A stretch of 64,000 nucleotides of DNA from an uncultured Haliangium sp. (GCA_964195735.1 CAXMQY010000056.1:1503-65502); one strand, 5' to 3'. Shown: positions 1 through 18,691, numbered from the stretch's first letter. Translations and numbers: made by a program. The notes: a model not told the origin generated them from the sequence alone.

Positions 1-414
1 TTGTTGTCGGCATCCGGCATACCCACGGCGGGCAAGATGGTGATCGGTACGGTCAAGGGCGATATCCACGATATCGGCAAGAACCTGGTGTGCATGATGA
101 TGGAAGGCGCTGGCTTCGAAGTCTTTGATCTCGGCATCAATACCCCGGTGGAAGATTTTCTCGCCGCGCTGGAAGAACACAAGCCCGAAATTCTTGGCAT
201 GTCGGCGCTGCTGACCACGACCATGCCCTACATGAAAGTCGTTATCGATACCATGAAAGAGCAGGGTATTCGTGACGATTACATCATCCTGGTCGGTGGC
301 GCACCACTCAACCAGGAATTCGGTGACGCCATCGGAGCCAATGCCTATTGCCGTGATGCCGCGGTTGCCGCCGACACCGCCAAGCAACTCGTCGCCGAGA
401 TGCGCGCCGGTTAG
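1..414 (+). CDS. B12-binding corrinoid protein, C-terminal part (5' end lies outside the window). Probably the cognate corrinoid protein of the MttB-family methyltransferase.
   Basis: The translation carries the cobalamin-binding Rossmann motif DIHDIGKNLV...ILGMSALLTTTM...ILVGGAPLN, typical of MtmC/MtbC/MtgC corrinoid proteins. The ORF is open at position 1. Confidence 0.85.
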   Translation: MLSASGIPTAGKMVIGTVKGDIHDIGKNLVCMMMEGAGFEVFDLGINTPVEDFLAALEEHKPEILGMSALLTTTMPYMKVVIDTMKEQGIRDDYIILVGGAPLNQEFGDAIGANAYCRDAAVAADTAKQLVAEMRAG

Positions 415-445
415 CACGCCGGGGACTGGCTGCTGGTGTCAATGC

Positions 446-1060
446 GTGGAAAATTCGGCCCCCATTCTGGTAATAACCTGCGCGGCGATTGCGCGCGAAG
501 TTAACGAGATCAAGAAGCTCGGGCAATGGTCGCAAATGGACTTGCAGGCGATCACCGCCGACCTGCACTCGCGCCCTGAGAAAATCGCACCTGCGGTTGC
601 CCGCAAGATCGATGAGGCACGCGACCAGTACGAGCACATCTTCGTCGCTTACGGCGATTGTGGCACCAGCGGCGAACTCGACAGGGTACTCGAGGAACGC
701 GGCGTCAAGCGCTTGCCCGGCGCACACTGCTACGATTTCCTGGCCGGACGCGAGCGCTATGAGCAAATGCAGGAAGAAGAACCCGGCAGTTTTTACCTGA
801 CCGATTTCCTGACCCAGCATTTCCAGCGGCTGGTCATCGAGATACTTGGCATCGACCGGCATCCGGAATTGCTGGAAATGTATTTCGGCAATTACACGCG
901 CCTGGTGTATCTCGCGCAAACCGATTCGCCGGAATTGACCGAGATGGCGCGCGCCGCGGCGGAGCAGCTGGGGTTGCGCTTCGAACGCGTGTTTACCGGC
1001 ATGGGCGAAATGGTGCCGGAACTGGGCGCGGCCATGCAGGAGGCGATGTGGCGCAGCTGA
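446..1060 (+). CDS. DUF1638 domain protein (commonly encoded beside corrinoid protein/methyltransferase genes)
   Basis: The ORF-track ORF 272..1060 overlaps the corrinoid gene in another frame. The first in-frame start after that gene's stop is GTG at 446, giving V/M-ENSAPILVITCAAIAREV, a DUF1638-like N-terminus. Confidence 0.65.
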   Translation: MENSAPILVITCAAIAREVNEIKKLGQWSQMDLQAITADLHSRPEKIAPAVARKIDEARDQYEHIFVAYGDCGTSGELDRVLEERGVKRLPGAHCYDFLAGRERYEQMQEEEPGSFYLTDFLTQHFQRLVIEILGIDRHPELLEMYFGNYTRLVYLAQTDSPELTEMARAAAEQLGLRFERVFTGMGEMVPELGAAMQEAMWRS

Positions 1061-1362
1061 GAATCGTCTACTGGCGCGATATTCCGGGGCGCGTGGTGAT
1101 CCGTGAAGGTCGTCGCAGCACCCGCCTGAACCTGTCAGCACGCTTCATGCATGCGATTGAGCGTGCCGCGTATCGCCTCAAGAAGCAGCAGAAAGATGCG
1201 ATGTTCGAGCCCTGGCACGATGTCAGTCAAGCCCTTGACGGCGACATTCGTGAACAGGCCCGGGCATTGTTGCTGCAGCTCGAGGAACACTACACGGAAG
1301 AAGTCCTGGAAACCCTGATTCGAGCCAGCGGTATCGATGAATCGCGTGGCCTTAGCCACTGA
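1048..1362 (+). CDS. hypothetical small protein (104 aa), overlapping the DUF1638 stop
   Basis: ORF in operon context with a 13-nt overlap of the upstream gene. I recognise no domain. Confidence 0.4.
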   Translation: MAQLRIVYWRDIPGRVVIREGRRSTRLNLSARFMHAIERAAYRLKKQQKDAMFEPWHDVSQALDGDIREQARALLLQLEEHYTEEVLETLIRASGIDESRGLSH

Positions 1363-1395
1363 TATAGAGCCACTGATATAGAGCCACTGAATAGA
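1353..1395. repeat. short tandem repeat, about 3 copies of GCCACTGATATAGA, in the intergenic region before metV
   Basis: Direct reading: ttagccactgatatagagccactgatatagagccactgaataga. Confidence 0.6.
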
Positions 1396-1399
1396 ACCC

Positions 1400-1870
1400 A
1401 TGTATATTATTCGTAAATGGTCGGTAACCCATTCGCGCAAGCTGGAAGCGCTGTACCGTAATTTCGAGCCGGCCTTGATGCGGCTGCACCCGCTGTTCAA
1501 GGCGCTCGGCTACGGGCGCCTTGAGACACCTGTGCGCGTGATCGAAAAAGCCGTCAAGAGCCTGATGTTCGATTGCCAGATGTGCGGTAAGTGCGCGCTC
1601 GGTTCCACCGGCATGTCCTGCCCGATGAACTGCCCGAAATCGATTCGCAACGGACCCTGTGGCGGCGTACGCCTGGACGGTCACTGCGAGGTCAAGCCGG
1701 AGATGCGTTGCGTCTGGGTCGAAGCCTGGCGCGGCAGTCAGCAGATGCGCGACTCGCAGGCCATCCGCCAGGTGCAAATACCGGTGGATAATCTGCTAAA
1801 GGGGAGTTCGTCGTGGTTGCGCGAGGTGCGTGAACAGCAGGCGGCACAGGAAACCGAGGCTAGTCAATGA
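1400..1870 (+). CDS. metV: MetV-like zinc-ribbon protein (methylene-THF reductase C-terminal-domain family, PF12225-like). Partner subunit of acetogen-type MetF.
   Basis: Cys-rich motifs CQMCGKCALGSTGMSCPMNCPKSIRNGPCGG. Its stop overlaps the start of the downstream metF (ATGA). Confidence 0.7.
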   Translation: MYIIRKWSVTHSRKLEALYRNFEPALMRLHPLFKALGYGRLETPVRVIEKAVKSLMFDCQMCGKCALGSTGMSCPMNCPKSIRNGPCGGVRLDGHCEVKPEMRCVWVEAWRGSQQMRDSQAIRQVQIPVDNLLKGSSSWLREVREQQAAQETEASQ

Positions 1871-2874
1871 ACGCGCCTTACGATCAGAATCCGGACAACC
1901 CGCTGCCGCAACTGGATGGGCATAGTTCGACCGGGCGACTCGAGCGCGTGTTGCGCGCCGGCCAATTCGTGGTCACCGCGGAGCTGGCGCCGCCGGATTC
2001 GGCGCTGGCCGCGGACGTCTACGAGCGCGCGCGCCTGTTCGACGGCTATGTCGATGGCATGAACGCTACCGACGGTTCGGGCGCACATTGCCACATGTCG
2101 AGTGTCGCCATGTGCGCGCTGCTGACCAACGTTGGTTACTCGCCGGTGCTGCAGATTTCCTGTCGCGACAAGAATCGCATCGCCATCCAGGGAGACGTGC
2201 TTGGCGCGGCGGCAATGGGCGTATCCAACGTGCTCTGCCTGAGCGGCGACGGCGTGCAGGTGGGTGACCACCCCGAGGCCAAGCCGGTGTTCGACCTGGA
2301 CAGCATGTCACTGCTCGAAACCATCCGCATCATGCGCGATGAATCGCGTTTTCTCAGCGGCCGACCGATTACCTCGCCGCCACAGATGTTTCTCGGTGCG
2401 GCCGAGAACCCGAGCGCGCCACCGATCGACTTTCGCCCCTACCGGCTGGCAAAAAAAATTGCCGCCGGTGCGCAGTTCATCCAGACCCAGTATATTTACG
2501 ATATCGAGCAGTTCCGCGATTTCATGGCGGCTGCGCGCGATCTCGGCTTACTGGAGCAGTGCTTCATATTGCCCGGTGTGGGACCGTTGGCGTCAGCGCG
2601 CACGGCCCTGTGGATTCGCAACAACGTACCCGGCATTCATATTCCTGACGCGGTAATCAAGCGACTGGAAGGTGCCGAGCAACCGAAGCTGGAGGGCCGC
2701 AAGATCTGTGTCGAACTGATCCAGCAGATTCGCGAGATCGAAGGGGTTAGTGGCGTACACATCATGGCCTATCGCCAGGAAGAGGCGGTCGGTGAAATCG
2801 TTCGGCAATCGGGCGTGCTGGCAGGGCGGACACCCTGGTACCCGGGTTGCGAGGTTCAGACCGGCGTTGCCTGA
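1867..2874 (+). CDS. metF: methylenetetrahydrofolate reductase (MetF, acetogen/methyltransferase-operon type)
   Basis: FVVTAELAPP...SCRDKNR...GVSNVLCLSGDG motifs of MTHFR. Translationally coupled to metV. Confidence 0.85.
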   Translation: MNAPYDQNPDNPLPQLDGHSSTGRLERVLRAGQFVVTAELAPPDSALAADVYERARLFDGYVDGMNATDGSGAHCHMSSVAMCALLTNVGYSPVLQISCRDKNRIAIQGDVLGAAAMGVSNVLCLSGDGVQVGDHPEAKPVFDLDSMSLLETIRIMRDESRFLSGRPITSPPQMFLGAAENPSAPPIDFRPYRLAKKIAAGAQFIQTQYIYDIEQFRDFMAAARDLGLLEQCFILPGVGPLASARTALWIRNNVPGIHIPDAVIKRLEGAEQPKLEGRKICVELIQQIREIEGVSGVHIMAYRQEEAVGEIVRQSGVLAGRTPWYPGCEVQTGVA

Positions 2875-2929
2875 GATGGCGCCGCTGCTGATTTTAATTT
2901 GCATTTAGAGAGATTGTGAGGAAATTACA

Positions 2930-3841
2930 ATGACCGAAACGGTTGTCAGCTCTGCCACCAGAGAACTCGTCATCGGATTCGAGCGCCCCTTCGTGCTGAT
3001 CGGGGAACGCATCAATCCCACTGGCCGCAAGATCATGGCCGAGGAAATGAAGGTCGGCGACTATAGTCGCGTACAAAGCGATGCGCTTGCACAGGTTGCG
3101 GCGGGTGCGCACATGCTCGATGTCAACGCCGGCATTCCGCTCGCGGACGAGCCGCGCATCCTGGCAGAAGCGATTCAGCTGGTGCAAAGCCTGACCGACG
3201 TGCCGCTCTCAATCGATTCGTCGATTATCGACGCGCTCGAAGCAGGCCTCGCCGTCTACCAGGGCAAGGCCCTGGTCAACTCGGTTACAGGCGAAGACGA
3301 AAGCCTCGACCGGGTACTGCCACTGGTGAAAAAGCACGGTGCCGCGGTGGTCGCCATATCGAACGACGAGACCGGTATATCCGAAGACATCAACGAGCGT
3401 TACAAGGTAGCGAAAAAGATTGTCGAACGCGCAGCCGACTACGGAATTCCGGCTTGCGACGTCGTCGTCGATCCGCTGGTCATGCCGATCGGCGCGATCA
3501 ACAGTGCCGGACGCGAAGTCCTCAAACTGATTCATCGCCTGCGCACCGAGCTCAAGGTCAACACCACCTGCGGTGCATCCAACGTCAGCTTCGGGCTGCC
3601 CAATCGTAACGGTTTCAACGGCGCCTTCATCAGTATGGCGATCCAGGCGGGCATGACTTCGGCGATTACCAACCCGCTGCACGCCGAGGTCGTCGCCGCC
3701 AGCCTGGGAGCGGATGTCATGCTCGGCAAGGACCCCGATTGCGCGCGCTGGATCAGGCAATTCCGCGAACCTGCGCCGGAAGGAACCCTTGCGCGCGGTA
3801 CCGGCCGTCGCGCCGGTCGTCGCCGTCGTCCCGCCGCGTGA
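2930..3841 (+). CDS. methyltetrahydrofolate:corrinoid methyltransferase (pterin-binding domain, MtgA/AcsE/MtrH-like)
   Basis: Pterin-binding fold motifs FVLIGERINPTGRK...MLDVNAG...NSV...TCGASNVSFGLP, as in the MetH pterin domain and AcsE. Confidence 0.8.
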   Translation: MTETVVSSATRELVIGFERPFVLIGERINPTGRKIMAEEMKVGDYSRVQSDALAQVAAGAHMLDVNAGIPLADEPRILAEAIQLVQSLTDVPLSIDSSIIDALEAGLAVYQGKALVNSVTGEDESLDRVLPLVKKHGAAVVAISNDETGISEDINERYKVAKKIVERAADYGIPACDVVVDPLVMPIGAINSAGREVLKLIHRLRTELKVNTTCGASNVSFGLPNRNGFNGAFISMAIQAGMTSAITNPLHAEVVAASLGADVMLGKDPDCARWIRQFREPAPEGTLARGTGRRAGRRRRPAA

Positions 3842-3850
3842 GGAAATAAC

Positions 3851-5890
3851 TTGGATTCCGAGCAGGCCAGTATCGAAGAAGTCAGCGTGCTGTTCATGCC
3901 CTCGGGCCTGCGCGGGCAAGTGCCGGTTGGCACCACGGTATTGCAGGCCGCGCAACGCCTCGGCGTCGATCTGGAATCGATTTGTGGCGGCCAGGGTAAA
4001 TGCCGCAAGTGCCAGGTACTGCCGCAGCAAGGCGAGTTCGCCAAGCACGGCATCGTTTCACGCGCCGAGCATCTTTCCGAACTGAGCGCGACCGAGTTGA
4101 TGCAGCAGTCGAAGAATCGCCTCAAGAACGGGCGTCGGCTGGGCTGCAACGCGCGTATTCTCGGCGACCTCGTGGTGGACGTACCCGAGGAAAGCCAGCA
4201 GCACAAACAGCACATCGCCAAGGCGATAACCGCCTACGATATCCAGGTGCAACCCGCGGTGCACCTGTACACGGTAACCCTGCCCGAACCCGACATGCAC
4301 TCGCCGATCTCGGATAAACGCCGCCTGCAACAGGCGCTGGTCGAGGATTTCGACCTGCCGGTGATGGATTGCGAGTTATCACAATTGCGACTGTTGCAAC
4401 CGGCGCTGGCGAAAGGCAAGCGTCAGATCACGGTCGCGGTTTACCAGTTCCAGCAAATTGTCGCCATCTGGCCGGGCGTCAGGAAGGAAGCATACGGGCT
4501 CGCGGTCGATCTCGGATCCACCACCATCGCGGCACAGCTGTGCAACCTGGTCACCGGGGAAGTGGTGGCCACCGCTGACACCATGAATCCGCAGATTCGC
4601 TTTGGCGAAGATTTGATGAGCCGCGTTTCCTACGTGATGATGAACGAAGGCGGCGATGTGGCGATGACGCAGGTGGTGCGTGAGGCCTTCAACCTACTCG
4701 CGAAACGCGCCGTGAAAAAGGCCGGAATTCAACTGGAAGACATTCTCGACATGGTCGTGGTCGCCAACCCGATCATGCACCACCTGTTTCTCGGTATCGA
4801 CCCGACTCCGCTGGGAACGGCCCCGTTTGCGTTGACCACCGACCAGATCCAGGTGCTGCGCGCGGCCGATATCGACATCCAGCTGCACGCGGAAGCCCGG
4901 ATCTGTACCTTGCCCTGTATCGCCGGTCACATCGGTGCCGATACCGCCGGCGTGATCCTGTCGGAGCGCCCGGATCTCGCCGAGGAACACGTGCTGCTGG
5001 TCGACGTTGGCACCAATGCCGAGATCGTGCTTGGTAACCGCAATCGCCTGCTGGCCGCGTCGAGCCCGACCGGGCCTGCATTCGAGGGTGCTCAGATCAG
5101 CGCCGGGCAACGCGCCGCTCCGGGCGCTATCGAACGCGTGCGCATTGATCCGGAAACTCTGGAACCGCGTTTTCGCGTCATCGGCTGCGAAGCCTGGTCG
5201 GACGATCCGGATTTCGCCGAAAAGAGCGCTCGCGTCGGTGTCAGCGGCATTTGCGGTTCGGGAATTATCGAAGTGATCGCGGAAATGTACCTCGCCAGGG
5301 TTATCGATGAGGATGGTGTTATCGGTCTGGTAGACGGCAAGCCCAGCGAGCGCATCGTCGCCGACGGCCGTACTTATTCCTATGTCATTCGCGAGGGCGA
5401 ACGCCCGATTCGAATTACGCAAAACGACGTGCGCGCTATTCAGCTGGGCAAGGCGGCGCTACATGCCGGCACGCGCCTGCTGCTCGATCACATGGGAATC
5501 GACAAGGTCGACCGCATCGGCCTGGCCGGCGCATTCGGCAGCCACATCGATGTCAAGTACGCGATGGTACTGGGCATGATTCCAGACTGTGACCTCGACA
5601 AGGTCGGTTCGGTTGGCAATGCCGCCGGCACCGGCGCGCGCATCGCCTTGCTGAACTTTCCGTCACGCCGCGAGATCTCTGAAATTTTGCCCAAGGTAGA
5701 AAAGATCGAAACCGCGATCGAGCCGAAATTCCAGGAGTACTTCATCGACGCCATGGCGATACCGCACAAGACCGACCGCTTCGAGGAATTGTCCCGCTTC
5801 GTCACGCTGCCCGCCCCGAAGCCAAAAGCGGAAACCAATCTCGGCGATGAACGGAAACGGCGTTCGCGTCGCCGGCGCAATAGAGCCTAG
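3851..5890 (+). CDS. corrinoid reductive activation enzyme (RamA-like). N-terminal 2Fe-2S ferredoxin domain plus ASKHA ATPase (DUF4445).
   Basis: N-terminal CGGQGKCRKC plant-type ferredoxin motif. The large C-terminal domain carries GxDxGTT (AVDLGSTTIAAQL) ASKHA signatures and the length is about 680 aa. Confidence 0.8.
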   Translation: MDSEQASIEEVSVLFMPSGLRGQVPVGTTVLQAAQRLGVDLESICGGQGKCRKCQVLPQQGEFAKHGIVSRAEHLSELSATELMQQSKNRLKNGRRLGCNARILGDLVVDVPEESQQHKQHIAKAITAYDIQVQPAVHLYTVTLPEPDMHSPISDKRRLQQALVEDFDLPVMDCELSQLRLLQPALAKGKRQITVAVYQFQQIVAIWPGVRKEAYGLAVDLGSTTIAAQLCNLVTGEVVATADTMNPQIRFGEDLMSRVSYVMMNEGGDVAMTQVVREAFNLLAKRAVKKAGIQLEDILDMVVVANPIMHHLFLGIDPTPLGTAPFALTTDQIQVLRAADIDIQLHAEARICTLPCIAGHIGADTAGVILSERPDLAEEHVLLVDVGTNAEIVLGNRNRLLAASSPTGPAFEGAQISAGQRAAPGAIERVRIDPETLEPRFRVIGCEAWSDDPDFAEKSARVGVSGICGSGIIEVIAEMYLARVIDEDGVIGLVDGKPSERIVADGRTYSYVIREGERPIRITQNDVRAIQLGKAALHAGTRLLLDHMGIDKVDRIGLAGAFGSHIDVKYAMVLGMIPDCDLDKVGSVGNAAGTGARIALLNFPSRREISEILPKVEKIETAIEPKFQEYFIDAMAIPHKTDRFEELSRFVTLPAPKPKAETNLGDERKRRSRRRRNRA

Positions 5891-5905
5891 CCCGCGAGGT
5901 CTCGC

Positions 5906-6913
5906 CTAGCTTGCGAGGTTAGAGTCTTCGCTTGCCGACTTGAGCTGCAGTTTGCGGCGTTCGTCGCGCGGTGGAATGCCGAACAGGTCGCGGTAGCACT
6001 TGCTGAAATGCGGCGCCGATATAAAGCCGCAGGCGAGTGCGATATCGACGATCGATTTACTGGTCTGCAACAACAACAGGCGCGCGCGGTTGAGGCGCAG
6101 GTTGAGGTAATAGCGTGTCGGCACGCAATTCAGATGTTTTTGAAACAGGCGTTCCAGCTGGCGCCTGGAAATGCCGACATAATTGGATAGCTCGTCGAGG
6201 CTGATCGGTTCTTCGATATTGGCCTCCATCAGGGTCACCGCCTCGGTCAACTTGGGCTGGTTCGATCCCAGCGCCAGGTGCAGCGGAATGCGCTGACGGT
6301 CATCCGAGCTGCGAATCCGCTCGCACATGAATTGCTCCGAGATATGCGTGACCATCTTGTTGCCATGGCGATCGTTGATCAGCTTCAGCATCATGTCCAT
6401 CGACGCTTGCCCACCGGCGCTGGTAATGCGATCGCGATCGATCAGGAACAAGTCGTCCGATACCTGGACCGACGGAAACTCTTCGCGCAGGCTGGCGATG
6501 TTCTCCCAGTGAATCGTGCACTTGTAACCGTCCAGCAGACCGGCACGCGCGAGCAGATAGCTGCCGGTACAGAGCGCTCCGAGTTTCACATTGTTGCGCT
6601 TGGCGATGCGTCGTAACGCAAATTGCAATTGTCGCGACCAGGCCTCGGCGATATCGGCGCCGCCACAGACGAACAGGATGTTGATGTCATTGGCGTTTTC
6701 GATACTGCCATCGGGCGTGATTTCGAGCCCGTTACTGGCTTTTTCGGCGAGGCCGTCAATGGTGTAAACACTCCATCGATAAAGCTCCCTGCCGGCATTG
6801 CGATTGGCCATGCGCAGGGGCTCGATGGCGGACGAGAACGCAATCATTGAGTAATTGGGAACCTGCAGGAAGCCAAAATGCTCAGGTTTGCTTGTGGAGT
6901 TTTCGTCACTCAT
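5906..6913 (-). CDS. GlxA/GbdR-family AraC-type transcriptional regulator (DJ-1/PfpI-like N-terminal domain plus AraC HTH)
   Basis: LFVCGG...GALCTGSYLLARAGLLDG..HW motif of the DJ-1-like domain. The C-terminal AraC HTH ends in RYYLNLRL..AR.LL. It resembles betaine/choline/carnitine-responsive GbdR/CdhR regulators. Confidence 0.85.
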   Translation of the reverse strand: MSDENSTSKPEHFGFLQVPNYSMIAFSSAIEPLRMANRNAGRELYRWSVYTIDGLAEKASNGLEITPDGSIENANDINILFVCGGADIAEAWSRQLQFALRRIAKRNNVKLGALCTGSYLLARAGLLDGYKCTIHWENIASLREEFPSVQVSDDLFLIDRDRITSAGGQASMDMMLKLINDRHGNKMVTHISEQFMCERIRSSDDRQRIPLHLALGSNQPKLTEAVTLMEANIEEPISLDELSNYVGISRRQLERLFQKHLNCVPTRYYLNLRLNRARLLLLQTSKSIVDIALACGFISAPHFSKCYRDLFGIPPRDERRKLQLKSASEDSNLAS

Positions 6914-7040
6914 AGGGCTGATTGTAGCGAAATGCGGGCAGCGAAGGGCTTCCCGAGTCCAATCGGCCAGAATACTAGACGCTAAACTTCACCAATGCAC
7001 GACATTTTTGGCCAGCAAAAAGCCAGTTACTGTCATTCCC

Positions 7041-7115
7041 GCGCACGCGGCCCACTGCGCGGGAACGACGCCTAATTCTGTCATTCCCGCGAAAGCGGGA
7101 ATCTCATAACAAGTT
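7041..7115. repeat. REP-like hairpin pair (family 2). TGTCATTCCCGCGCA-N10-TGCGCGGGAACGA and TGTCATTCCCGCG-AAAG-CGGGAATC.
   Basis: Two stem-loops share the 5' TGTCATTCCCGCG arm. They sit between the regulator and the MttB gene, and related copies occur at 23139-23228. Confidence 0.55.
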
Positions 7116-7218
7116 GATCACAGGTAGCACTGGGAATTTGTAAGATCCCCGTTTGCACGGCGGTCCGCCGAAGCGGGATGACTTTTTTGGGGTGGGGCGC
7201 TTTATGCGCCCAGATTGT

Positions 7219-8808
7219 TTATACCATTGAATCGGGCATGGAGGACTTGCGCTGATCGATGTAGGCGAGCAGGGCTTCATCGATGGCCGGGTCAATCGCG
7301 GGTGCCTGGTACTCGGCGAGCAGTTTCTTGTAACGCGCGTTGCAACGCTGCGCATGGTCGAGACTGCCTTCCGATTGCCATTGCTCGTAGCTGTTATTGT
7401 CGGTAATCGGCGAACGGTAAAACGCGGTCTTGAAATTATTCTGCGTGTGATTACAGCCGAGAAAATGCACCCCGGGGCCGACCTCGCGGATGGCATCCAT
7501 CGCCTGTCCGTTCTCGGACAAGTCGACGCCGCCCATCAGGATTTCCATCATCGCTGCCTGATCGGTGTCCATGATGAATTTTTCGTATCCCATGGAGAGC
7601 CCGCCTTCCAGCCAGCCAGCGGTGTGTAACACGAAATTGACCCCGGCCATGACTGCCGGCTGCAGCGTGGCCGCAGACTCGTAGGCCGCCTGCGCATCGG
7701 GCAGCTTGGAACCGCACAGGCCACCACCGGAGCGGAAGGGTACGCCAAGGCGGCGCGCCAGCGCGGCCATCACGTAGAGTACAAGTGCCGGTTCGGGCGT
7801 GCCGAAAGTGGGTGCGCCCGATTGCATGGACATCGAACTGGCGAAGCTGCCGAAGATAACCGGTGCACCCGGGTTGACCAGTTGTACGAAGGTTATGCCG
7901 GCGAGCGCCTCGGCGAGTGACTGCGCCGCGGTGCCTGCCACGGTCACCGGCGACATCGCGCCAGCCAGGATAAACGGGGTGATGATCGTCGCCTGGTTGT
8001 TCTCCGCGTAGACCTTGGCGGCGCCGAGCATGGTGTCGTCAAATGTCATCGGCGAATTAGCGTTGATCAGGCTGGTTGCGTAGGTACGTGGTCGCCCGGT
8101 AGCCGGGTCGAGGTAGTTTTCGCCGGCGAGGATTTTGATCATTTCGACGGTATCCTGCGCGCGCGCAGGCGCCGTCACCGAACCCATGAAAGCCTTGTCG
8201 GAGTACTTGATGTGCGAGTAAATCATGTCGAGGTGGCGCTTGTTCACCGGTACATCAACCGGTTCGCATATGGTGCCGCCGGAAAGGTGCATGCTTGGCG
8301 AAACGTAAGCCAGTTTGACGAAGTTCTGAAAGTCCTCCAGCGTCGCATAGCGGCGGCCCTTGTCGAGGTCGTAGACGAACGGGCTGCCGTAGGCCGGCAC
8401 GAAAACCGTGTTCTTGCCACCGATCTGGACATTGCGTTCTGCATTACGCGCGTGCTGGGTGTATTCGGCGGGCGCCGACGCCTGGATGATGGAGCGGCAC
8501 AGGCCGCGTGGAAAGCGCACCCGCACGCCGTCGATTTCGGCGCCGCCCTGCTTGAGGATATCCAGCGCTTCCGGCATATCGCGAAACTCGATACCGATCT
8601 CTTCCAGTATCGTGTCCGCGTTGTTTTCGATCAGTTGCAGCCCCTCCTCATCGAGCACTTCGAAGAAAGGTATCTTGCGCTTGACATAGGGTGCGCTTTT
8701 GGTGACCACGGTAACGCCAGCACGACGCGCATCGCGTCCGCCACGCCCGCGTCTGCCGCGTACTGATCGATTTTCTTGGCTCATTGGGAGCTCCTGGTAA
8801 GCTTGCAA
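7219..8808 (-). CDS. MttB-superfamily (non-pyrrolysine) methyltransferase. Glycine betaine/quaternary amine:corrinoid methyltransferase (MtgB/MtcB/MtpB-like).
   Basis: A 529-aa TIM-barrel MttB-family protein (COG5598-like) with no in-frame amber codon. It is co-localised with corrinoid protein, MtgA-like, RamA-like and MetFV genes. Confidence 0.9.
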   Translation of the reverse strand: MQAYQELPMSQENRSVRGRRGRGGRDARRAGVTVVTKSAPYVKRKIPFFEVLDEEGLQLIENNADTILEEIGIEFRDMPEALDILKQGGAEIDGVRVRFPRGLCRSIIQASAPAEYTQHARNAERNVQIGGKNTVFVPAYGSPFVYDLDKGRRYATLEDFQNFVKLAYVSPSMHLSGGTICEPVDVPVNKRHLDMIYSHIKYSDKAFMGSVTAPARAQDTVEMIKILAGENYLDPATGRPRTYATSLINANSPMTFDDTMLGAAKVYAENNQATIITPFILAGAMSPVTVAGTAAQSLAEALAGITFVQLVNPGAPVIFGSFASSMSMQSGAPTFGTPEPALVLYVMAALARRLGVPFRSGGGLCGSKLPDAQAAYESAATLQPAVMAGVNFVLHTAGWLEGGLSMGYEKFIMDTDQAAMMEILMGGVDLSENGQAMDAIREVGPGVHFLGCNHTQNNFKTAFYRSPITDNNSYEQWQSEGSLDHAQRCNARYKKLLAEYQAPAIDPAIDEALLAYIDQRKSSMPDSMV

Positions 8809-8949
8809 TAGGTCGGAACAATAGGCCAGTATGGTTTTAGGTGATTTCGCGAGCTAACCTAAGGGCGACTCTGAACTATTTGCCCGCGCCATCGGGTTTC
8901 GTGCGAATCGGCGTACTGGCAAGTTGTGCATGGAGGTTAATAAGTTAGA

Positions 8950-9957
8950 ATGAAGCGCGCAAAACCCGGTATCGAACCAGAGGAGCCACTAATAAAAGAC
9001 GATTCTGAAACCATCGGTATCCTGCTGATCGAAGGTTATCCGATTATTCCGTTCAGCTGCGTGGTCGACTCGATGCGTTCCGCCAACCGCCTGTCGGGAA
9101 AAACGCTGTATCGTTGGGAATACTTCGCGCCCGATGATGAGCCGGTATCGGCCTCTTGCGGTATCGAGGTGCCGACTCTGGCGCTCAACACCGCCAAACA
9201 ATTGACGACATTGATCATCGTTGCCCCCAACACGGCGCAAAACTTCGATCACGCCGGCACGCTCAAGTTTTTGCAATCCCTGGATCGGCAGGATGTCTGT
9301 CTCGGTTCGGCGAGTTCAGGGAGTTTTATTCTCGCGCGGGCAGGCCTGCTGGACCATTGCCGCTGCACCATACACTGGGAAAACATTCCGGTACTCAAGG
9401 AGTTGTACCCACAGCTCGATGTTGCTTTTACCCTCTATGAAATCGGCGATCGCCGCCTGACCTGCTCCGGGGGAACCGCGGCGCTCGACATGATGCTCAA
9501 ACTGATCGAGAACCAGCACGGCCGCCAGTTGGCGCAGCAGATTTCACAACAACACCAGCATGATCGTATCCGTACCGAGCTCGATTCGCAGCAAATGGCT
9601 GATCGCATCGACCTGGCGATGAGCGCACCCAGGCTGATCGATGTGATCAACCTGATGGAAAACAATATCGAGGTGCCCTTGACGCTGCCGTCGATCGCGC
9701 AAAAATGCAAGCTGTCGTTACGCCAGATCGAACGCCTGTTTCACAAGTATCGCGGGCTCACGCCGAGCCAATATTACCTGTCGCTGCGCCTGATGCACGC
9801 CAAGCAGCTGCTACTCAACACCAATCGCAGCGTGATCGATATATCCATCGCCACCGGTTTTGAAACCCAGTCTTACTTTACCGCCTGTTACCGCAAGCAC
9901 TTCGGTAGCTCACCGCGCAACCACCGCACGCAGGTGGCCACCGAGCGCAAGGCCTGA
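8950..9957 (+). CDS. second GlxA/GbdR-family AraC-type regulator, divergent from the MttB gene
   Basis: Same DJ-1-like plus AraC HTH architecture (CTIHWENIPVLKELYP...YYLSLRLMHAKQLL). Confidence 0.85.
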   Translation: MKRAKPGIEPEEPLIKDDSETIGILLIEGYPIIPFSCVVDSMRSANRLSGKTLYRWEYFAPDDEPVSASCGIEVPTLALNTAKQLTTLIIVAPNTAQNFDHAGTLKFLQSLDRQDVCLGSASSGSFILARAGLLDHCRCTIHWENIPVLKELYPQLDVAFTLYEIGDRRLTCSGGTAALDMMLKLIENQHGRQLAQQISQQHQHDRIRTELDSQQMADRIDLAMSAPRLIDVINLMENNIEVPLTLPSIAQKCKLSLRQIERLFHKYRGLTPSQYYLSLRLMHAKQLLLNTNRSVIDISIATGFETQSYFTACYRKHFGSSPRNHRTQVATERKA

Positions 9958-11199
9958 ATGAATAAGACGGTTACTGTGCTGGGCGCCGGAATTATCGGCA
10001 TTTGCTGCGCGCTGGAATTGCAGCGGCGTGGATTCGAAGTCAGGCTGATCGACCGTCGCGGCCCGGGCGAGGAAACCTCGTCGGGTAACGCCGGGATCCT
10101 GAGTTACAGTAATATCACCCCGCTTGCCGCCCCGGCGCTGTTGGCGCGATTGCATCGGCTGATACTGAACCGTGACGACGATTTCCTGTTGCACTACCCA
10201 CATTTGGTGTCGCTGCTGCCATGGTTTGCGCGATTCCTGCGGCGCTGCAAGCGCGAAACTTATCTGCGCGATGGCAATGCGATGAACCAGCTTACCAGTG
10301 CATCGGTAGCGCTACACAAGCAGTGGATCGAGCAGGCCGGGGCGCAGGACCTGTTGAACCGGGGGGGTGGGCTCAAGCTTTACCGCCGTCGCGAAACTTT
10401 CTTGCGCGACCAGCTCGAGCGAGACCTGTTGCAGCAGTGCGCGGTGCGACACCAGGTGCTGGATGCGCAGCAGGCCTATGAACTCGAGCCCGATCTGAAA
10501 AAGGTTTTCGTGCAGGCGGTGCTGATCGAAGAGTCGGTGTCGATTCGTAATCCCGAGAAACTGTGCAAACACTATGCCCGGATGTTCAGCGAAGCCGGCG
10601 GCCGGGTCGAGCAGGCCGCGGTGCAATCGCTGCGCGAGGCGCCGGACGGCTGGGAAGTGACGACCGACCAGGACGTATTGACCACGCCCCGGGTGGTAGT
10701 CTGCATGGGTGCCTGGACGCCCGAACTGATCGGTCCATTGGGTTACACCAACCCGCTTGCGATCGAGCGCGGCTACCATACGGTATTCGCGGCCGCGGGT
10801 GGTGTCAGCCTGTCGCGGCCGATCTTCGATGTCGATGCCAGTTACGTCATGGCGCCGATGGAGGCAGGATTGCGCGTGAGCACCGGAACCAACATGACCC
10901 GGCGCGAAACACGACCCGACCCGCGCCAGCTTGCGCGCGTCATCCCACGGGTGCGCGAGGCGTTCCCGGTCGAAGCGGAATTGCTGCGTGAGCCGTGGAT
11001 GGGCAGGCGTCCGACTGTACCCGATACCTTGCCGATCATCGGCCCGGCGCCGCGGCATGACGGCTTGTGGCTTGCGTTTGCGCACTCGCACATGGGCTTG
11101 ACCATGGGGCCGATCACGGGGCAGCTGATCGCTAATTCCATCAGCGGTTCCGCACAGCCGTTTTCGATGGACGCCTGCGCTCCGGCGCGTTACCTGTAA
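9958..11199 (+). CDS. FAD-dependent oxidoreductase, DAO/DadA family (candidate N-methyl amino acid or D-amino acid dehydrogenase)
   Basis: N-terminal VTVLGAGIIGICCALEL dinucleotide-binding motif and 413 aa. The start codon abuts the regulator's stop (TGAATG). Confidence 0.8.
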   Translation: MNKTVTVLGAGIIGICCALELQRRGFEVRLIDRRGPGEETSSGNAGILSYSNITPLAAPALLARLHRLILNRDDDFLLHYPHLVSLLPWFARFLRRCKRETYLRDGNAMNQLTSASVALHKQWIEQAGAQDLLNRGGGLKLYRRRETFLRDQLERDLLQQCAVRHQVLDAQQAYELEPDLKKVFVQAVLIEESVSIRNPEKLCKHYARMFSEAGGRVEQAAVQSLREAPDGWEVTTDQDVLTTPRVVVCMGAWTPELIGPLGYTNPLAIERGYHTVFAAAGGVSLSRPIFDVDASYVMAPMEAGLRVSTGTNMTRRETRPDPRQLARVIPRVREAFPVEAELLREPWMGRRPTVPDTLPIIGPAPRHDGLWLAFAHSHMGLTMGPITGQLIANSISGSAQPFSMDACAPARYL

Positions 11200-11238
11200 C
11201 GCAATCGACTGCGACCCTGGTTGGGTCCTGCAGGCGGG

Positions 11239-12153
11239 CTAGTTGAATTTGTTCAGGTTTCTGACCGCGCTGCTGCGCCCGATCAGCTTGCGGAAGTTCA
11301 TGATTTCGCTGCGTTTGTACTGCGTGGCCTCGTCCAGGGCGCCCTGGAACTCGTCCGATTTCAATATCGATACGTAACGGTCGACGACCTTGTTGAGCGG
11401 TTCGTAGGGCAGTTCGCAGGCGTGCGCATACTGCCGCGTCGCCTGCTCGGCGACTTCGCCGATCAGCGGCGTATTGTCGACCAGATCGAATGACATGTGC
11501 AGGCTATAAGGCGCGCTGGTGATACAGCGATGCGGCACACCGGCACGCAGGTAGATTGCATCGCCTGGACGCATGGTAAATTCCTGCATGACCGGCCCCA
11601 GTTGCTGATCGTCCAGGTTCTCGATGTCGGCATAGCGGCGTTGTTGCGGGGCAAACAGGTTCCAGGTTTTCTTGCCGGCGAGCTGCACCACCAGCACGTC
11701 ATCGGCATCGCAGTGGCCATCGTAGGCCTCGTTGTCCTGCTGCGAAAAAAAGGCCTCGGCGTTGGATAATGCGCAGGGCAAAGCGTCGTCGAGCCGGGCG
11801 ACGAACTCGTTGATACCCGCATCGAGCAGGTCGACACCTTCGAGCACGACCGCGGCGCCCTGGTTGATCTCGTCGTTGAGCACTTCCTTGTCGATAAATT
11901 GCAGCCGCTTGTTTTGCACGGTCTTGTAAAAGCAGGATTTTTCCAGTTCGACGCGATCGCCGTCCTTCTTGACGTAGAGCCACTCGGGCTGCAACAGCGG
12001 GTTGTTCAGGTGGCGCTGCAGATCGGCGACCGTAAAGAAGCTGGGTTTGTCGATCACTCCAGCCTTGTAGGTATAAGATTCGGGCAGGTTCTGGCGTTGT
12101 TTCAGGTAAAAGTCGAGCAGTGACTGGAGTTCTTTATGCAGCTTCTGTTTCAT
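11239..12153 (-). CDS. cupin-like/JmjC-domain protein (putative Fe(II)/2-oxoglutarate oxygenase)
   Basis: 304 aa with a JmjC/cupin_4-like core (HCDADDVLVVQLAGKKTWNLF...GDAIYLRAGVPH). Confidence 0.6.
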   Translation of the reverse strand: MKQKLHKELQSLLDFYLKQRQNLPESYTYKAGVIDKPSFFTVADLQRHLNNPLLQPEWLYVKKDGDRVELEKSCFYKTVQNKRLQFIDKEVLNDEINQGAAVVLEGVDLLDAGINEFVARLDDALPCALSNAEAFFSQQDNEAYDGHCDADDVLVVQLAGKKTWNLFAPQQRRYADIENLDDQQLGPVMQEFTMRPGDAIYLRAGVPHRCITSAPYSLHMSFDLVDNTPLIGEVAEQATRQYAHACELPYEPLNKVVDRYVSILKSDEFQGALDEATQYKRSEIMNFRKLIGRSSAVRNLNKFN

Positions 12154-12241
12154 GGTGGGGCCCTGTTTGATCGCGCGCTATTATCCACGATTCCGCGGTC
12201 CTGACCAAGTGCGCCGCCCTGGTGCAATATGCCGGCGGATT

Positions 12242-13975
12242 CTACTGGAAATGGAAACGGGCGAACTCGGCCGGCAACGGCGGCTTGCCGAGGATGAAAT
12301 CCGCCGCGCGCGCGGCGATCATCTGTGTCGGCGCGTTGAGGTTGCCGCTGATGATTCTGGGCATGACCGAGGCGTCCACTACGCGCAAGCCGTCGATACC
12401 ATGTACTTTCATCTCGGTATCCACTACCGAACCAGCGTCGTTGCCCATGCGGCAACTGCAGCTGGGATGAAAATCGGTGGAGGCGCTGGCGCGAATCCAG
12501 TTTTCGATGTCTGTCGTTGACTTGACGTCCGCCACCGGCTCGGTGCGCTCACCGCGCGAGGCGATGAATGCAGGCTGCGCAACCAGCTCCTGCATCTTGT
12601 GAAAGCCTTCGACCAGTTCGCGTAAATCATGCGCGTCGGCCAGGTAATTGAAGTGAACCGCCGGCCGGTCTGCCGGGTTGGCCGAAGTAAGTTCGATATT
12701 ACCCTTGCTGGCGGGGCGCAGTTGATCGACCTGCAGCGTAAAACCCTGCGACAACTTGATTCTACGGCCGACGTAAGTCGCCGCGATCGGGGCAAAATGG
12801 TATTGCAGGTTGGGATATTCGATCTCGTCGTTGCCGCGTATGAGACCGCCGGCCTCCCAGATGTTGGATGCGCCAAAGCCGTCGTGCGAGCTCAGCCAGC
12901 GCAGGCCGACTTTCAGTTTATTCCAGGGCCGCGTCATATGCTGGTAAGTGATCGGCCGGGTGCAGCGCCAGGTACAGTGTATTTTAAGGTGGTCCTGCAG
13001 GTTCTGACCAACCCCGGGCAGTTCCTGCTGAAGCGGCAGGCCGTGCTTTGCGAGTTCGGCGGCGGGGCCAATGCCGGACAGCATCAACAGTTGAGGCGAC
13101 TTGATCGCGCCGCAAGAGACGATGACTTCGCGCCGCGCGCGTATGACTTCGACCTTGCCGCGGTGTTGAAATCGGACCCCGGTTGCGCGCCTACCTTCCA
13201 GCAACACCTGCTCGACCAACGCGTGCGTCACCAACTCAAGGTTGGGTCGGGTCAGCGCCGGTTTTAGATGCGCTACCGCGGCGCTACAGCGCCTGCCGTC
13301 GCGAATAGTGCTGTCGAGGCGGGCGACCCCTTCGGGCTGAAACCCGTTCAGGTCCTGCGAAAGCCCCTGCCCGGCGCTTTCACCGGCCAGTAGAAACGCA
13401 TCGAACAGCGGATTCTCCAGCTTCGCGCGCGCGACCCCGAGCGGGCCTTTAGCGCCGCGCCATTCATCTTCACCGCGTTCCGAAGTCTCGCCGGCACGAA
13501 AGTAGGGCAGGCAATCCGCGTAACGCCACCCCTCGAGGCCGAGTTCATCGTTCCAGCGGTCGTAATCGCGCGGATGGCCGCGCATGTACACCATCGAGTT
13601 GATCGAGGATGAACCGCCCAGCACCTTGCCGCGTGGCAGTTCGATGTGGCGTTGCGCGAGATCGGCTTCCGACTCCGACTGGTAGTTCCAGTTGATCGAG
13701 GGGTCCTTGTAGACTGAGTGCACGCCGGCCGGGATGTGGATCAGCAGCTTGTCGTCCATCGGCCCGGCTTCGACTAAAAGCACGCTGTACTCGCCGCTCT
13801 CGCTGAGGCGATTGGCAAGTACGCAGCCGGCTGACCCGGCGCCGAGGATGATGTAGTCGTATTCGCGTTCCACGCGCGCAGCATCGCAATTGCAAATGCC
13901 GCGGTCAATCGCTTTTGCAACTGCGCTGTTGGCGGAATCCTGACAATACACTTGGTCATGGCAGGGGCTTGGCAT
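12242..13975 (-). CDS. GMC-family oxidoreductase (choline dehydrogenase-like paralogue). The true start is probably GTG at 13873, giving 543 aa.
   Basis: [19 protein letters not shown] ... GMC signatures. The longest ORF has a 34-aa N-terminal extension that no BetA homologue carries. Confidence 0.85.
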   Translation of the reverse strand: MPSPCHDQVYCQDSANSAVAKAIDRGICNCDAARVEREYDYIILGAGSAGCVLANRLSESGEYSVLLVEAGPMDDKLLIHIPAGVHSVYKDPSINWNYQSESEADLAQRHIELPRGKVLGGSSSINSMVYMRGHPRDYDRWNDELGLEGWRYADCLPYFRAGETSERGEDEWRGAKGPLGVARAKLENPLFDAFLLAGESAGQGLSQDLNGFQPEGVARLDSTIRDGRRCSAAVAHLKPALTRPNLELVTHALVEQVLLEGRRATGVRFQHRGKVEVIRARREVIVSCGAIKSPQLLMLSGIGPAAELAKHGLPLQQELPGVGQNLQDHLKIHCTWRCTRPITYQHMTRPWNKLKVGLRWLSSHDGFGASNIWEAGGLIRGNDEIEYPNLQYHFAPIAATYVGRRIKLSQGFTLQVDQLRPASKGNIELTSANPADRPAVHFNYLADAHDLRELVEGFHKMQELVAQPAFIASRGERTEPVADVKSTTDIENWIRASASTDFHPSCSCRMGNDAGSVVDTEMKVHGIDGLRVVDASVMPRIISGNLNAPTQMIAARAADFILGKPPLPAEFARFHFQ

Positions 13976-14010
13976 ATGATCGCCGCGAACGGGTAAATGA
14001 AGTGGTGGGC

Positions 14011-15159
14011 ATGAGCGAAGTATTCGATTTTGATCAGTTGCTGGATCGCGTCAACAGCGACAGCGTCAAGTGGGCAAAATACGCGGGCCGCGACATCCTG
14101 CCCATGTGGGTCGCGGATACTGATTTCGCGGTAGCCCCGCAGATCCAGCAGGCGCTGATACGCCGCGCCGGGCATCCCGTTTATGGTTACACGGAAGTTC
14201 GACAGGAATTGCTCGAGTTGCTGGTAGAGCGCATGCACAGGCTTTACCAATGGGACATCGAACCTGGCTGGATAGTGCCCCTGCCGAACGTCATCAGCGC
14301 TTTCTTCCTGGCCTGCCGCGCCACTGGCAAGGCCGGGGATGCCGTTTACCAGCCACAGGTGATTTATCCTCCGTTTGCCAAATCGGTTACTTTTCATGAC
14401 ATGGTCAAGCAACCCATACCCATGTGCAGTAGTGAAGGTCGCATGATCATCGATCTCGACTGGCTGGAAAAACAGCCGGCCCGCCCCGGCCAGCTGACCT
14501 TCTTCTGTAATCCGCAAAACCCCGGCGGCGCGGTGTATCGCCGCCACGAGCTCGAGCGCCTGGCGGACCTCGTCGAGCGCCAGGAGCTGATACTGGTTTC
14601 GGATGAAGTCCACTGCGATCTGCTTCTCGATGCGGACAAATCGCATTTGCCCATCGCTTCGTTGAACCCGCGCATCGAACAACGCAGCATTACCCTGATG
14701 GCGCCGAGCAAAACGTTCAACCTGGCCGGCCTCAGTTGCGCTTTCGCGATCATTGCTGATGCCAGCTTGCGGCGCCGCATGCGGGTAAATCCCTATATCG
14801 TCCCCCATGTGAACCTGATGGGGCTGGCGGCCGCGGAAGCGGCATACGAGTTTGGCGACGAATGGAACCGGCAGCAATGCGCCTACCTCGCCGCCAACCG
14901 CGACTACCTGGTCAGGGAAATCAACCGCATCCCCGGGTTGCGGCTCGATCCAGTCGAAGCGACTTACCTCGCCTGGATCGACGTCTCCGCGCTCGGACTT
15001 GACGATCCGCCCGGTTTCTTCGAAGCCGCCGGCGTCGGCATGTCGCCGGGATACGAATTCGGCGATTCCGGTTACATGCGGCTCAATTTCGGCTGTCCGC
15101 GTAGTCGCCTGGTGGAGGCCGTCGAGCGCATCCGCAGGGCCGTCGAGGCGATGGCCTGA
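14011..15159 (+). CDS. PatB/MalY-type C-S lyase (class I/II aminotransferase fold, cystathionine beta-lyase-like)
   Basis: MSEVFDFDQLLDRVNSDSVKW..., the PLP-lysine region SKTFNLAGL and 383 aa. The ORF-track start at 13915 would overlap the divergent GMC gene, so ATG 14011 is preferred. Confidence 0.8.
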   Translation: MSEVFDFDQLLDRVNSDSVKWAKYAGRDILPMWVADTDFAVAPQIQQALIRRAGHPVYGYTEVRQELLELLVERMHRLYQWDIEPGWIVPLPNVISAFFLACRATGKAGDAVYQPQVIYPPFAKSVTFHDMVKQPIPMCSSEGRMIIDLDWLEKQPARPGQLTFFCNPQNPGGAVYRRHELERLADLVERQELILVSDEVHCDLLLDADKSHLPIASLNPRIEQRSITLMAPSKTFNLAGLSCAFAIIADASLRRRMRVNPYIVPHVNLMGLAAAEAAYEFGDEWNRQQCAYLAANRDYLVREINRIPGLRLDPVEATYLAWIDVSALGLDDPPGFFEAAGVGMSPGYEFGDSGYMRLNFGCPRSRLVEAVERIRRAVEAMA

Positions 15160-15331
15160 ACGGATTTTATGCCGGTTCCGGGCATACCGGAGCATGTCGT
15201 TATTGTCTTCCGAATGGTCGTTCTAGTTCGGCGTCCCTGCTATCGATTCCGATATTCTTTTGCGACTCTATGGCGCGCGCCCTGTTAGTGGGTGCGCGAT
15301 TTATGATAACCAGAATAAAGTAGGTTGATCG

Positions 15332-17714: not shown

Positions 17715-17752
17715 CTGTTAACTCCTTGTTGCGTTAACGATCAGCAGCTGCA

Positions 17753-18594: not shown

Positions 18595-18691
18595 GAGCAA
18601 AGATCAACAGCTGACACGGATTAATTCGAAGCCCGGCGAAAGAATGCTAGCATTACGCTATTGTGATAAATGAATTTGAAGGTTTGCGACA

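Follow-up and report, generated by a model that had tools for sequence, protein, structure and literature searches.

A predicted gammaproteobacterial MtgBCD-type glycine betaine demethylase and its candidate GbdR-type control

The locus considered here lies in a 64 kb window (GCA_964195735.1, CAXMQY010000056.1:1503-65502), the window being the whole stretch of DNA that was analysed, 64,000 nucleotides (nt) long. The cluster under study occupies positions 1-9957. It contains an operon for corrinoid- and tetrahydrofolate (THF)-dependent methyl transfer and, on the opposite strand, a gene for an MttB-superfamily methyltransferase flanked by two regulators of the GbdR type. The host is an uncultured gammaproteobacterium, and is probably an aerobe because O2-linked enzymes, such as a urate oxidase, are encoded in the window. 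This arrangement raises the question of which methylated amine is demethylated, where the methyl group goes and what controls the genes. The region quite likely encodes, judging from its sequence and that of its relatives, a gammaproteobacterial MtgBCD cobalamin-dependent glycine betaine demethylase with its support functions.

The module itself is known. Work on aerobic Alphaproteobacteria has described it and put it to genetic test, and its presence in Gammaproteobacteria has been noted (PMC12478193; bioRxiv 10.64898/2025.12.19.695462). The cobalamin-dependent glycine betaine demethylase of aerobic Proteobacteria comprises MtgB, MtgC, MtgD, MetF2, a RamA-like activase and a DUF1638 protein (Mausz et al. 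PNAS 2025, PMC12478193), and the system in the window is not new, since it has this same component set. Homologues of mtgBCD are known from Alpha-, Gamma- and Deltaproteobacteria and often form operons beside genes for the downstream demethylations (PMC12478193). The only apparently new element is GbdR-type control of the B12-dependent route, which appears to be undescribed and is predicted here from the promoters of the locus and its relatives.

Composition and conservation of the module

The operon and the methyltransferase gene consist of the following:

1-414, plus strand: mtgC-like corrinoid protein (PF02310, 8.8e-27), the C-terminal 137 of 235 amino acids (aa), with the 5' end cut by the window edge
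446-1060, plus strand: DUF1638 protein, 204 aa (PF07796, 2.7e-31)
1048-1362, plus strand: PF13769 'Virulence_fact' protein, 104 aa (2.8e-14)
1400-1870, plus strand: MetV-like cysteine-rich small subunit of a MetFV-type methylene-THF reductase (PF12225, MTHFR_C, 7e-27)
1867-2874, plus strand: MetF2-type methylene-THF reductase (PF02219, 9.5e-36)
2930-3841, plus strand: pterin-binding methyl-THF:corrinoid methyltransferase, MtgD (PF00809, 6e-31; PRK07535, 345 bits with a cut-off of 259)
3851-5890, plus strand: RACo-type ATP-dependent corrinoid reductive activase (RACo_C_ter 1.3e-87, Raco_middle 1.4e-47, RACo_linker 1.7e-21, N-terminal 2Fe-2S domain Fer2)
7219-8784, minus strand: mtgB-like non-pyrrolysine MttB-superfamily methyltransferase, 521 aa (PF06253, 753 bits, model positions 3-500 of 500)

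The plus-strand genes are packed tightly, with intergenic gaps of 9-55 nt or overlaps of 4-13 nt, and such spacing on one strand is consistent with a single operon. The original prediction, made from the sequence alone, had named six linked components (B12-binding protein, DUF1638, MetV, MetF, pterin-binding protein and activase). All six give strong profile matches where it placed them, but as a list of the operon it was incomplete, the PF13769 gene having been overlooked. Nor was the activase, which it called RamA-type, rightly classed, as the protein scores 386 bits with the bacterial RACo/AcsV model and 116 bits with that of the methanogen RamA type.

The best NCBIfam match of the corrinoid protein is the 'glycine betaine-specific corrinoid protein MtgC', and its DxHxxG (His-on) motif reads GDIHDIG. 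The missing 5' end is supplied by a metagenome scaffold (L083) which is 99.7% identical to the window. The complete mtgC, at 2206-2913 of this scaffold, encodes 235 aa with a B12 cap (PF02607) and a B12-binding domain (PF02310), and so a stand-alone corrinoid protein. The start of the DUF1638 gene at 446 is backed by 100% identity to P0241 and by the gene call of the same scaffold. The small MetV subunit carries the cysteine cluster CQMCGKC...CPMNC...C, and its PF12225 gene overlaps the start of the PF02219 gene, the two being encoded side by side as in the MetFV type. MetF2 is nearest to the clostridial-type MTHFR domain (PRK08645, 207 bits), not to E. coli MetF (24 bits), and the MTHFR gene is found directly upstream of the MtgD gene.

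The MttB-family gene had been predicted as amber-free, with a product of 529 aa starting at 8808. There is indeed no in-frame stop, but the start most likely lies at the ATG at 8784, behind an AGGAG, giving 521 aa; the gene call of scaffold L083 agrees. An exact look-up of the MttB sequence, with either start, returned no match, and the scaffold was reached through the DUF1638 protein. A pyrrolysine-type MttB was rejected, with no in-frame stop over 521 codons and 269 bits for TIGR02369 where the cut-off is 525.

Relatives of MttB were collected by scanning one genome per species (n=577), and the locus counts below refer to the best 80 of these 577. The best 80 are 67-92% identical to the window protein and come mostly from Gamma- and Betaproteobacteria, mostly as metagenome-assembled genomes, many of the loci being truncated contigs. 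Cultured carriers among them are Pseudomonas sp. sp1636, Halomonas lysinitropha and Denitromonas iodatirespirans. The corrinoid protein (Cob), DUF1638, MetV, MetF, MtgD and RACo were all six detected in at least 27 of the 80 related loci. The order Cob-DUF1638-PF13769-MetV-MetF-MtgD-RACo beside MttB recurs in Gamma- and Betaproteobacteria, including the cultured Pseudomonas, Halomonas and Denitromonas. Of the 36 related loci with both MetF and MetV, 32 also have the PF13769 gene.

The same order is seen in Sinorhizobium meliloti, where an MttB-family gene is divergent from genes for a cobalamin-binding protein and DUF1638. These are followed by a PF13769 'virulence factor', MTHFR_C, MTHFR, a methyl-THF cobalamin methyltransferase, a hypothetical protein and an ASKHA (RACo) protein, with bmt/mtgE and a glycine betaine ABC transporter nearby. 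Identity between the window and S. meliloti proteins is 66% for MttB, 79% for Cob, 70% for MetF, 61% for MtgD, 59% for MetV, 57% for RACo, 48% for DUF1638 and 35% for PF13769. Within the S. meliloti cluster PF13769 stays with MetV-MetF-MtgD-RACo while Cob and DUF1638 lie apart. As PF13769 remains with MetV and MetF where the cluster is split, we infer that its product functionally goes with MetFV.

AlphaFold models of DUF1638 (pLDDT 61) and PF13769 (pLDDT 70) were set aside as uninformative, being of low confidence and built on shallow alignments (73-100% identity). With either model, a Foldseek search of the PDB returned nothing at E <= 0.001, and TM-scores did not exceed 0.28. Neither the window nor the region upstream of mtgC in scaffold L083 shows a cobalamin riboswitch or any other Rfam family, and the window has no tRNA.

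Upstream of mtgC, the scaffold (1-2205; 2.5 kb upstream of the window start) encodes a TPR protein and a protein of 313 aa whose N-terminal part is a flavin-reductase domain (PF01613). This 313-aa protein is confined to the closest relatives (L003, L083 and L084), with a remnant in L004, and may either donate electrons to the module or have no connection with it.

Substrate and fate of the methyl group

In the proposed mechanism, MtgB would transfer one N-methyl group of glycine betaine to the Co(I) corrinoid on MtgC, leaving dimethylglycine and methyl-Co(III) as products, and MtgD would pass the methyl from the corrinoid to THF. MetF2 and MetV (1400-2874), perhaps with the PF13769 protein, would then convert methyl-THF to methylene-THF for C1 oxidation or assimilation, this being the direction predicted for MetF2. 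Corrinoid lost to Co(II) through adventitious oxidation would be returned to Co(I) by the RACo-type activase and DUF1638, with ATP spent. The chemistry of methyl transfer and reactivation is taken from published orthologous systems. Both the domain content and the S. meliloti gene order agree with the putative route from substrate through corrinoid and THF to methylene-THF that had been predicted for the locus.

Experimental results for the orthologous genes come from Alphaproteobacteria. It has been reported that MttB-family proteins, MetF2, RamA and DUF1638 are induced on N-osmolytes, with MetF2 the most strongly induced protein in Ruegeria pomeroyi (PMC12478193). A mtgB1 gbcAB double mutant of Phaeobacter inhibens shows no growth on glycine betaine (bioRxiv 10.64898/2025.12.19.695462).

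The original prediction had left the substrate of the MttB protein open. Genomic context narrows it to glycine betaine without proving it, and glycine betaine is considered the likely substrate from the loci compared. It is named mainly because the neighbourhoods of the orthologues hold genes for the conversion of glycine betaine to dimethylglycine, sarcosine, glycine and serine. Flanking open reading frames (ORFs) of the related loci were clustered and the recurrent clusters annotated. Proteins of the dimethylglycine dehydrogenase type (DAO-FAO_M-GCV_T) flank MttB orthologues in 14 and 6 loci (two clusters), while SoxB, SoxA and SoxG occur in 11, 10 and 6 flanking regions, respectively. Further clusters are L-serine dehydratase (7 loci), FolD (6), a BCCT transporter (5), GMC/BetA-like proteins (13) and a BetB-like aldehyde dehydrogenase (7). 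An MttB copy on an Azoarcus plasmid, 77% identical, has folD/ETF-QO on one side and, on the other, a choline-binding protein with betA and betB.

The active site gives a mixed picture. Only 4YYC, 2QNE/9YCE and the pyrrolysine MttB represent the family in the PDB, the first having been deposited with an unknown ligand. The window protein is 66% identical to S. meliloti 4YYC, its best match of solved structure and 100% identical to the MttB of the S. meliloti cluster, and 49% identical to MtgB of Desulfitobacterium hafniense. The glycine betaine site of the latter is formed by Y97 and F356, which make cation-pi contacts, and by R312 and H348, which bind the carboxylate (Picking et al. 2026, PMC13080624). 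In an alignment to 9YCE, Y132, R351 and H387 of the window protein correspond to Y97, R312 and H348.

Three observations weigh against glycine betaine demethylation. The position of F356 is taken by G395, leaving three of the four residues of the D. hafniense-type cage. Identities of 49% to MtgB or 66% to the uncharacterised 4YYC do not fix the substrate, because MtyB and MtcB are 53% identical and yet prefer different substrates. There are also no genes for dimethylglycine or sarcosine demethylation (dimethylglycine dehydrogenase, SoxBDAG) in the 64 kb window. As to the first point, Gly at the F356 position and an invariant Trp at the I352 position are found in 74 of 74 proteobacterial sequences aligned (window, 4YYC and related loci), and this Trp, W391, four residues upstream of G395, may substitute for F356.

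The altered cage and the MtyB/MtcB precedent would suit an MttB acting by the same chemistry on another methylated amine (proline betaine, carnitine, gamma-butyrobetaine, choline/phosphocholine or trimethylamine), with glycine betaine handled elsewhere in the genome. Proteobacteria are known to have as many as seven MttB paralogues with no assigned specificity (PMC12478193), and in this lineage the neighbours of the gene include a further, divergent GbdR paralogue and an uncharacterised run of DAO, JmjC, GMC, PatB and DAO genes. This alternative is nevertheless unlikely. The carboxylate-binding Arg and His and the first aromatic Tyr are kept; the syntenic S. meliloti gene belongs to a cluster assigned to glycine betaine; and orthologues of 67-92% identity stand beside the mtgC operon and the genes leading from dimethylglycine to serine. 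Moreover, the neighbouring regulator is closest to GbdR, whose ligands are reportedly glycine betaine and dimethylglycine.

Three Steroidobacteraceae-type loci (L041, L046 and L051) have a second MttB gene at the distal end of this corrinoid operon, coding for a paralogue with 37-38% identity to the window protein. Ser replaces the Y97 equivalent in both of the second paralogues aligned (L041 and L046). The arrangement suggests a second substrate that would be served by the same MtgC and MtgD.

A different role for the operon is suggested by methionine synthesis. In P. inhibens, methionine synthase is made of three parts and needs separate B12-binding and pterin-binding proteins, a RamA-like DUF4445 protein and DUF1638, the last two being genetically required together (Price et al. 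2018, PMC5764234). MtgC and MtgD of Ruegeria and Phaeobacter also form a split methionine synthase with MtgE (PMC12478193). The same MtgC, MtgD, RamA-like and DUF1638 proteins are needed for methionine in P. inhibens and R. pomeroyi (PMC5764234, PMC12478193). The operon could in this case be mainly a split cobalamin-dependent methionine synthase, with MtgC, MtgD, RACo and DUF1638 and an MtgE encoded elsewhere carrying the methyl from methyl-THF through the corrinoid to homocysteine, and MttB an optional addition. MtgE-like genes do adjoin mtgB in about 10 related loci, and an S-methyl_trans protein of the MtgE/Bhmt type appears among the flanking-ORF clusters in 8. Such a main function is very improbable here, however. 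The 64 kb window contains no MtgE-type homocysteine methyltransferase (S-methyl_trans), MetF2 and MetV are embedded in the operon, and a candidate GbdR-type site (see below) precedes the mtgC operon in scaffold L083 and in 17 related loci, which suggests catabolic induction. Methionine synthesis as the primary role is unlikely, while a dual role in demethylation and methionine synthesis is plausible, though put forward tentatively. The original statement that the methyl group is oxidised is kept as a prediction, but not its addition 'rather than used to methylate homocysteine', as published systems do both and some related loci hold the MtgE-like genes. Glycine betaine demethylation with oxidation of the methyl group stays the favoured reading of the operon.

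Regulators, candidate operator and flanking genes

The control elements of mtgB are as follows:

5906-6913, minus strand: GbdR-like regulator 1 (DJ-1/PfpI PF01965 and AraC HTH_18 PF12833; NF052371, 472 bits)
8828-8833, minus strand: -10-like hexamer CATACT of the mtgB promoter, invariant in 7 of 7 aligned promoters, with a weak -35-like TTAGCT 18 nt upstream
8865-8891, minus strand: candidate GbdR/CdhR (GATR)-type operator TGGCGC-N15-AGTCGC, 107 nt upstream of the mtgB ATG
8950-9957, plus strand: GbdR-like regulator 2 (GbdR model, 315 bits with a cut-off of 480), divergent from mtgB and followed without a gap by a DAO-family gene

As predicted, two GbdR-like AraC regulators flank MttB, scoring 472 and 315 bits with the GbdR model. 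Regulator 2 covers this model from end to end but gives no Pfam match to DJ-1. The two are 39% identical, and they probably sense different ligands, as this value resembles the 44% identity reported for the GbdR/CdhR pair.

The candidate operator stands in the one conserved island of the mtgB promoter. Across the seven closest mtgB promoters the sequences have diverged but for ATGrCGCnnGnnAAAyAGTTCnnnGTCGCnC...TnAGC...AAAAyCATACT, which holds both the repeat and the -10-like hexamer. The CATACT/TTAGCT promoter falls below the threshold of a generic sigma-70 scan, as would be expected of an activator-dependent promoter. A scan of positions 1-11500 for sigma-70 promoters and terminators gave matches no more numerous than in shuffled sequence. 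For CdhR the published site, GGTCGC-N15-GGTCGC, is said to resemble closely those of GbdR, SouR and ArgR, and GbdR needs the CG of a GCCGC half-site in order to bind (PMC5806209). The element upstream of mtgB has the make-up of a GbdR operator, being a direct repeat whose half-sites contain CGC and are spaced by about 15 nt, and lying upstream of predicted glycine betaine catabolic genes.

The repeat TGnCGC-N15-nGnCGC is found 80-180 nt upstream of MttB orthologues in >40 loci, upstream of the mtgC operon in 17 related loci and upstream of 7 of 14 dimethylglycine-dehydrogenase-like genes. Scaffold L083 has a one-mismatch copy, TGTCGT-N15-AGTCGC, at about -112 of the mtgC operon. Upstream of mtgB the repeat is enriched over all other ORFs of the same loci with an odds ratio of 22 (27/71 vs 24/887, p = 1e-19), and upstream of mtgC with an odds ratio of 19. 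A conserved GbdR/CdhR-type direct repeat upstream of both mtgB and the mtgC operon argues for the probable GbdR-type control that had been raised as a question for the locus. In the proposed mechanism, a GbdR-family regulator (5906-6913, possibly 8950-9957) probably activates mtgB and the mtgC operon. With glycine betaine or dimethylglycine as the signal, it would bind the direct repeat TGnCGC-N15-nGTCGC just upstream of the weak promoters.

Two findings count on the other side. Regulator 1 falls just under the GbdR equivalog cut-off (NF052371, 472 vs 480 bits). The bare repeat pattern is unspecific in the GC-rich window, with 10 matches where 3.2 are expected, and the operator argument rests on position, conservation and enrichment because the pattern is not rare in GC-rich DNA. 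In addition, a rhizobial preprint on glycine betaine and B12 reports no GbdR-like sites at glycine-betaine-responsive promoters. The repeat might on these grounds be the site of another factor or a conserved promoter element, with the adjacent AraC genes regulating something else. This is doubtful, given that its half-site and 15-nt spacer match the sites of CdhR, GbdR and SouR (PMC5806209), that it keeps a distance of 80-180 nt from the start codon next to a conserved -10 element, and that its enrichment concerns mtgB, mtgC and dimethylglycine dehydrogenase genes and not other genes. The nearest detected cluster gene to MttB is, furthermore, a GbdR-like gene in 30 of the 80 loci and the operon in 33. 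As the rhizobial promoters are reported to be without GbdR-like sites, the candidate GbdR-type operator may possibly be specific to Gamma- and Betaproteobacteria. In the literature searched, no paper was found that mentions GbdR with MttB, MtgB or mtgBCD.

At two of the cultured loci, those of Pseudomonas sp. sp1636 (L009) and H. lysinitropha (L019), a folD-like coding sequence directly precedes mttB (region about 400 nt upstream), and there is no operator immediately upstream. Because it directly follows this coding sequence, mttB is probably co-transcribed there with folD, not from its own GbdR-type promoter. The operator is present in D. iodatirespirans IR-12.

The spacer between the mtgB stop and the start of regulator 1 (7032-7110) contains 2-3 copies of a palindromic unit, GTCATTCCCGCG...CGCGGGAA(T/C)GAC, which occurs nowhere else in the 64 kb. 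These units look like repetitive extragenic palindromic (REP)-type hairpins, or a terminator or stabiliser between mtgB and the regulator gene.

Beyond regulator 2 the following genes were annotated:

9958-11199, plus strand: DAO-family FAD oxidoreductase (PF01266, 2.7e-63; best NCBIfam match a D-amino-acid dehydrogenase subfamily, 188 bits with a cut-off of 383)
11239-12153, minus strand: JmjC-like protein
12242-13975, minus strand: choline-dehydrogenase-like GMC oxidoreductase, passing only a subfamily model
13915-15159, plus strand: PatB-type C-S lyase (386 bits)
15332-16675: second DAO-family protein
21426-23093: GMC oxidoreductase, the only one to pass the BetA equivalog cut-off

The DAO gene at 9958-11199 is probably co-transcribed with regulator 2 and is a possible accessory, not a core component; regulator 2 and this gene are found only in the six closest relatives (L001-L006). 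The block 9958-16675, which starts directly behind regulator 2, is complete only in L003 and partial in L001, L002, L004 and L006. It may catabolise another methylated amine or a sulfonium compound. A 473-aa ORF at 13774-15195 on the minus strand was discarded as probably spurious, as it overlaps the plus-strand gene at 13915-15159, which alone has a family match.

The surroundings had been described as a betaine/choline island with betA and with sarcosine-oxidase-like and DAO-family oxidases. The betA gene (21426-23093) and the DAO-family genes are present, but the two DAO-family proteins resemble SoxB only at the level of the superfamily (73 bits vs a cut-off of 529), and the island is looser than supposed. 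No BetB or BetI is encoded in the window. Between the betaine-related block and the BetA gene lies a small arsenic-resistance cluster (16698-18617), which encodes an ACR3 arsenite efflux protein (414 bits), a glyoxalase-fold protein and an ArsR-type regulator. From about 16.7 kb on, the window holds genes for arsenic resistance, a 3-oxo-tetronate kinase, oxaloacetate decarboxylase and purine/urate catabolism. The purine/urate cluster (39270-57116) encodes a GntR regulator, OHCU decarboxylase, a PuuE-like deacetylase-fold protein, XdhABC, a nucleoside-type ABC transporter, a membrane urate oxidase (PF06181), two amidohydrolases and allantoicase.

Taken together, these observations allow a wider reading, which is quite possible but is offered with reserve. 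Many Gamma- and Betaproteobacteria may have swapped O2-dependent GbcAB for B12-dependent MtgBCD within a GbdR-family regulon, with TGnCGC-N15-nGTCGC operators at mtgB, at the mtgC operon and at dimethylglycine dehydrogenase genes. MetF2-MetV-PF13769 would be a dedicated methyl-THF-oxidising unit, and regulator 2 with the DAO-JmjC-GMC-PatB block would sense a further methylated compound.

Relation to known systems

The pathway is already known as one of the main routes by which glycine betaine is turned over, and as a major vitamin B12 sink, in the ocean. The compact, fully operonic gammaproteobacterial version is a convenient template for annotation, as public records label such proteins 'trimethylamine methyltransferase family protein' or 'virulence factor'. 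GbdR control of the B12 route, if true, would link the well-studied Pseudomonas regulon to a different enzymology, and the repeat motif offers a way to predict, in uncultured bacteria, which genes respond to glycine betaine. Two conserved genes, DUF1638 and the MetFV companion PF13769, mark incomplete biochemistry in corrinoid reactivation and in the electron acceptor for methyl-THF oxidation.

The closest known system is the proteobacterial MtgBCD(E), with which the window shares a non-pyrrolysine MttB, a separate corrinoid protein, MtgD, MetF2, a RamA/RACo-like activase and DUF1638. The gene order of the window is also that of the S. meliloti mtg cluster. In Ruegeria and Phaeobacter the support genes are scattered, whereas in the window they are all in one operon. 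There is no mtgE near the window mtgB, unlike in S. meliloti, where mtgBCDE are co-localised (PMC12478193). The two flanking GbdR-type regulators and the conserved candidate operator are further differences, unmentioned in the Mausz and Price papers.

The MtgABC system of D. hafniense (Ticak et al. 2014; PMC13080624; PDB 2QNE, 9YCE) follows the same logic, from glycine betaine through corrinoid to THF, with MtgA as the functional equivalent of the window MtgD. It differs in having F356 and I352 where the window protein has Gly and the invariant Trp, and its corrinoid protein is of a phylogenetically distinct lineage (per Mausz et al., PMC12478193). The methyl-THF of the D. hafniense system is fed to the acetyl-CoA pathway, while that of the window is proposed to be oxidised.

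The regulators have their counterparts in CdhR, SouR and the GbdR regulon (gbcAB, dgcAB, soxBDAG) of Pseudomonas aeruginosa (PMC5806209). The likeness lies in the DJ-1/PfpI and AraC architecture and, for GbdR-family sites, in direct repeats of GnCGC half-sites 15 nt apart with glycine betaine catabolic targets. The first demethylation step in P. aeruginosa is carried out by the Rieske oxygenase GbcAB, whereas the predicted target in the window is the B12-dependent MtgBCD. A second paralogue, 39% identical, is adjacent in the window.

MtpB, MtcB, MtyB and MthB of Eubacterium limosum, which act with MtqC and MtqA, are similar in that substrate-specific MttB paralogues share a single corrinoid protein and a single THF methyltransferase, alongside a RamA-type activase. 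These systems, compared by description only, belong to strict anaerobes/acetogens and have different substrate cages. The window activase shares with RACo of Carboxydothermus hydrogenoformans and with AcsV the four-domain layout of 2Fe-2S, linker, middle and ASKHA ATPase domains. The client of RACo/AcsV is the corrinoid iron-sulfur protein CoFeSP, whereas that of the window activase would be a small MtgC-type protein, with DUF1638 as its companion in Proteobacteria.

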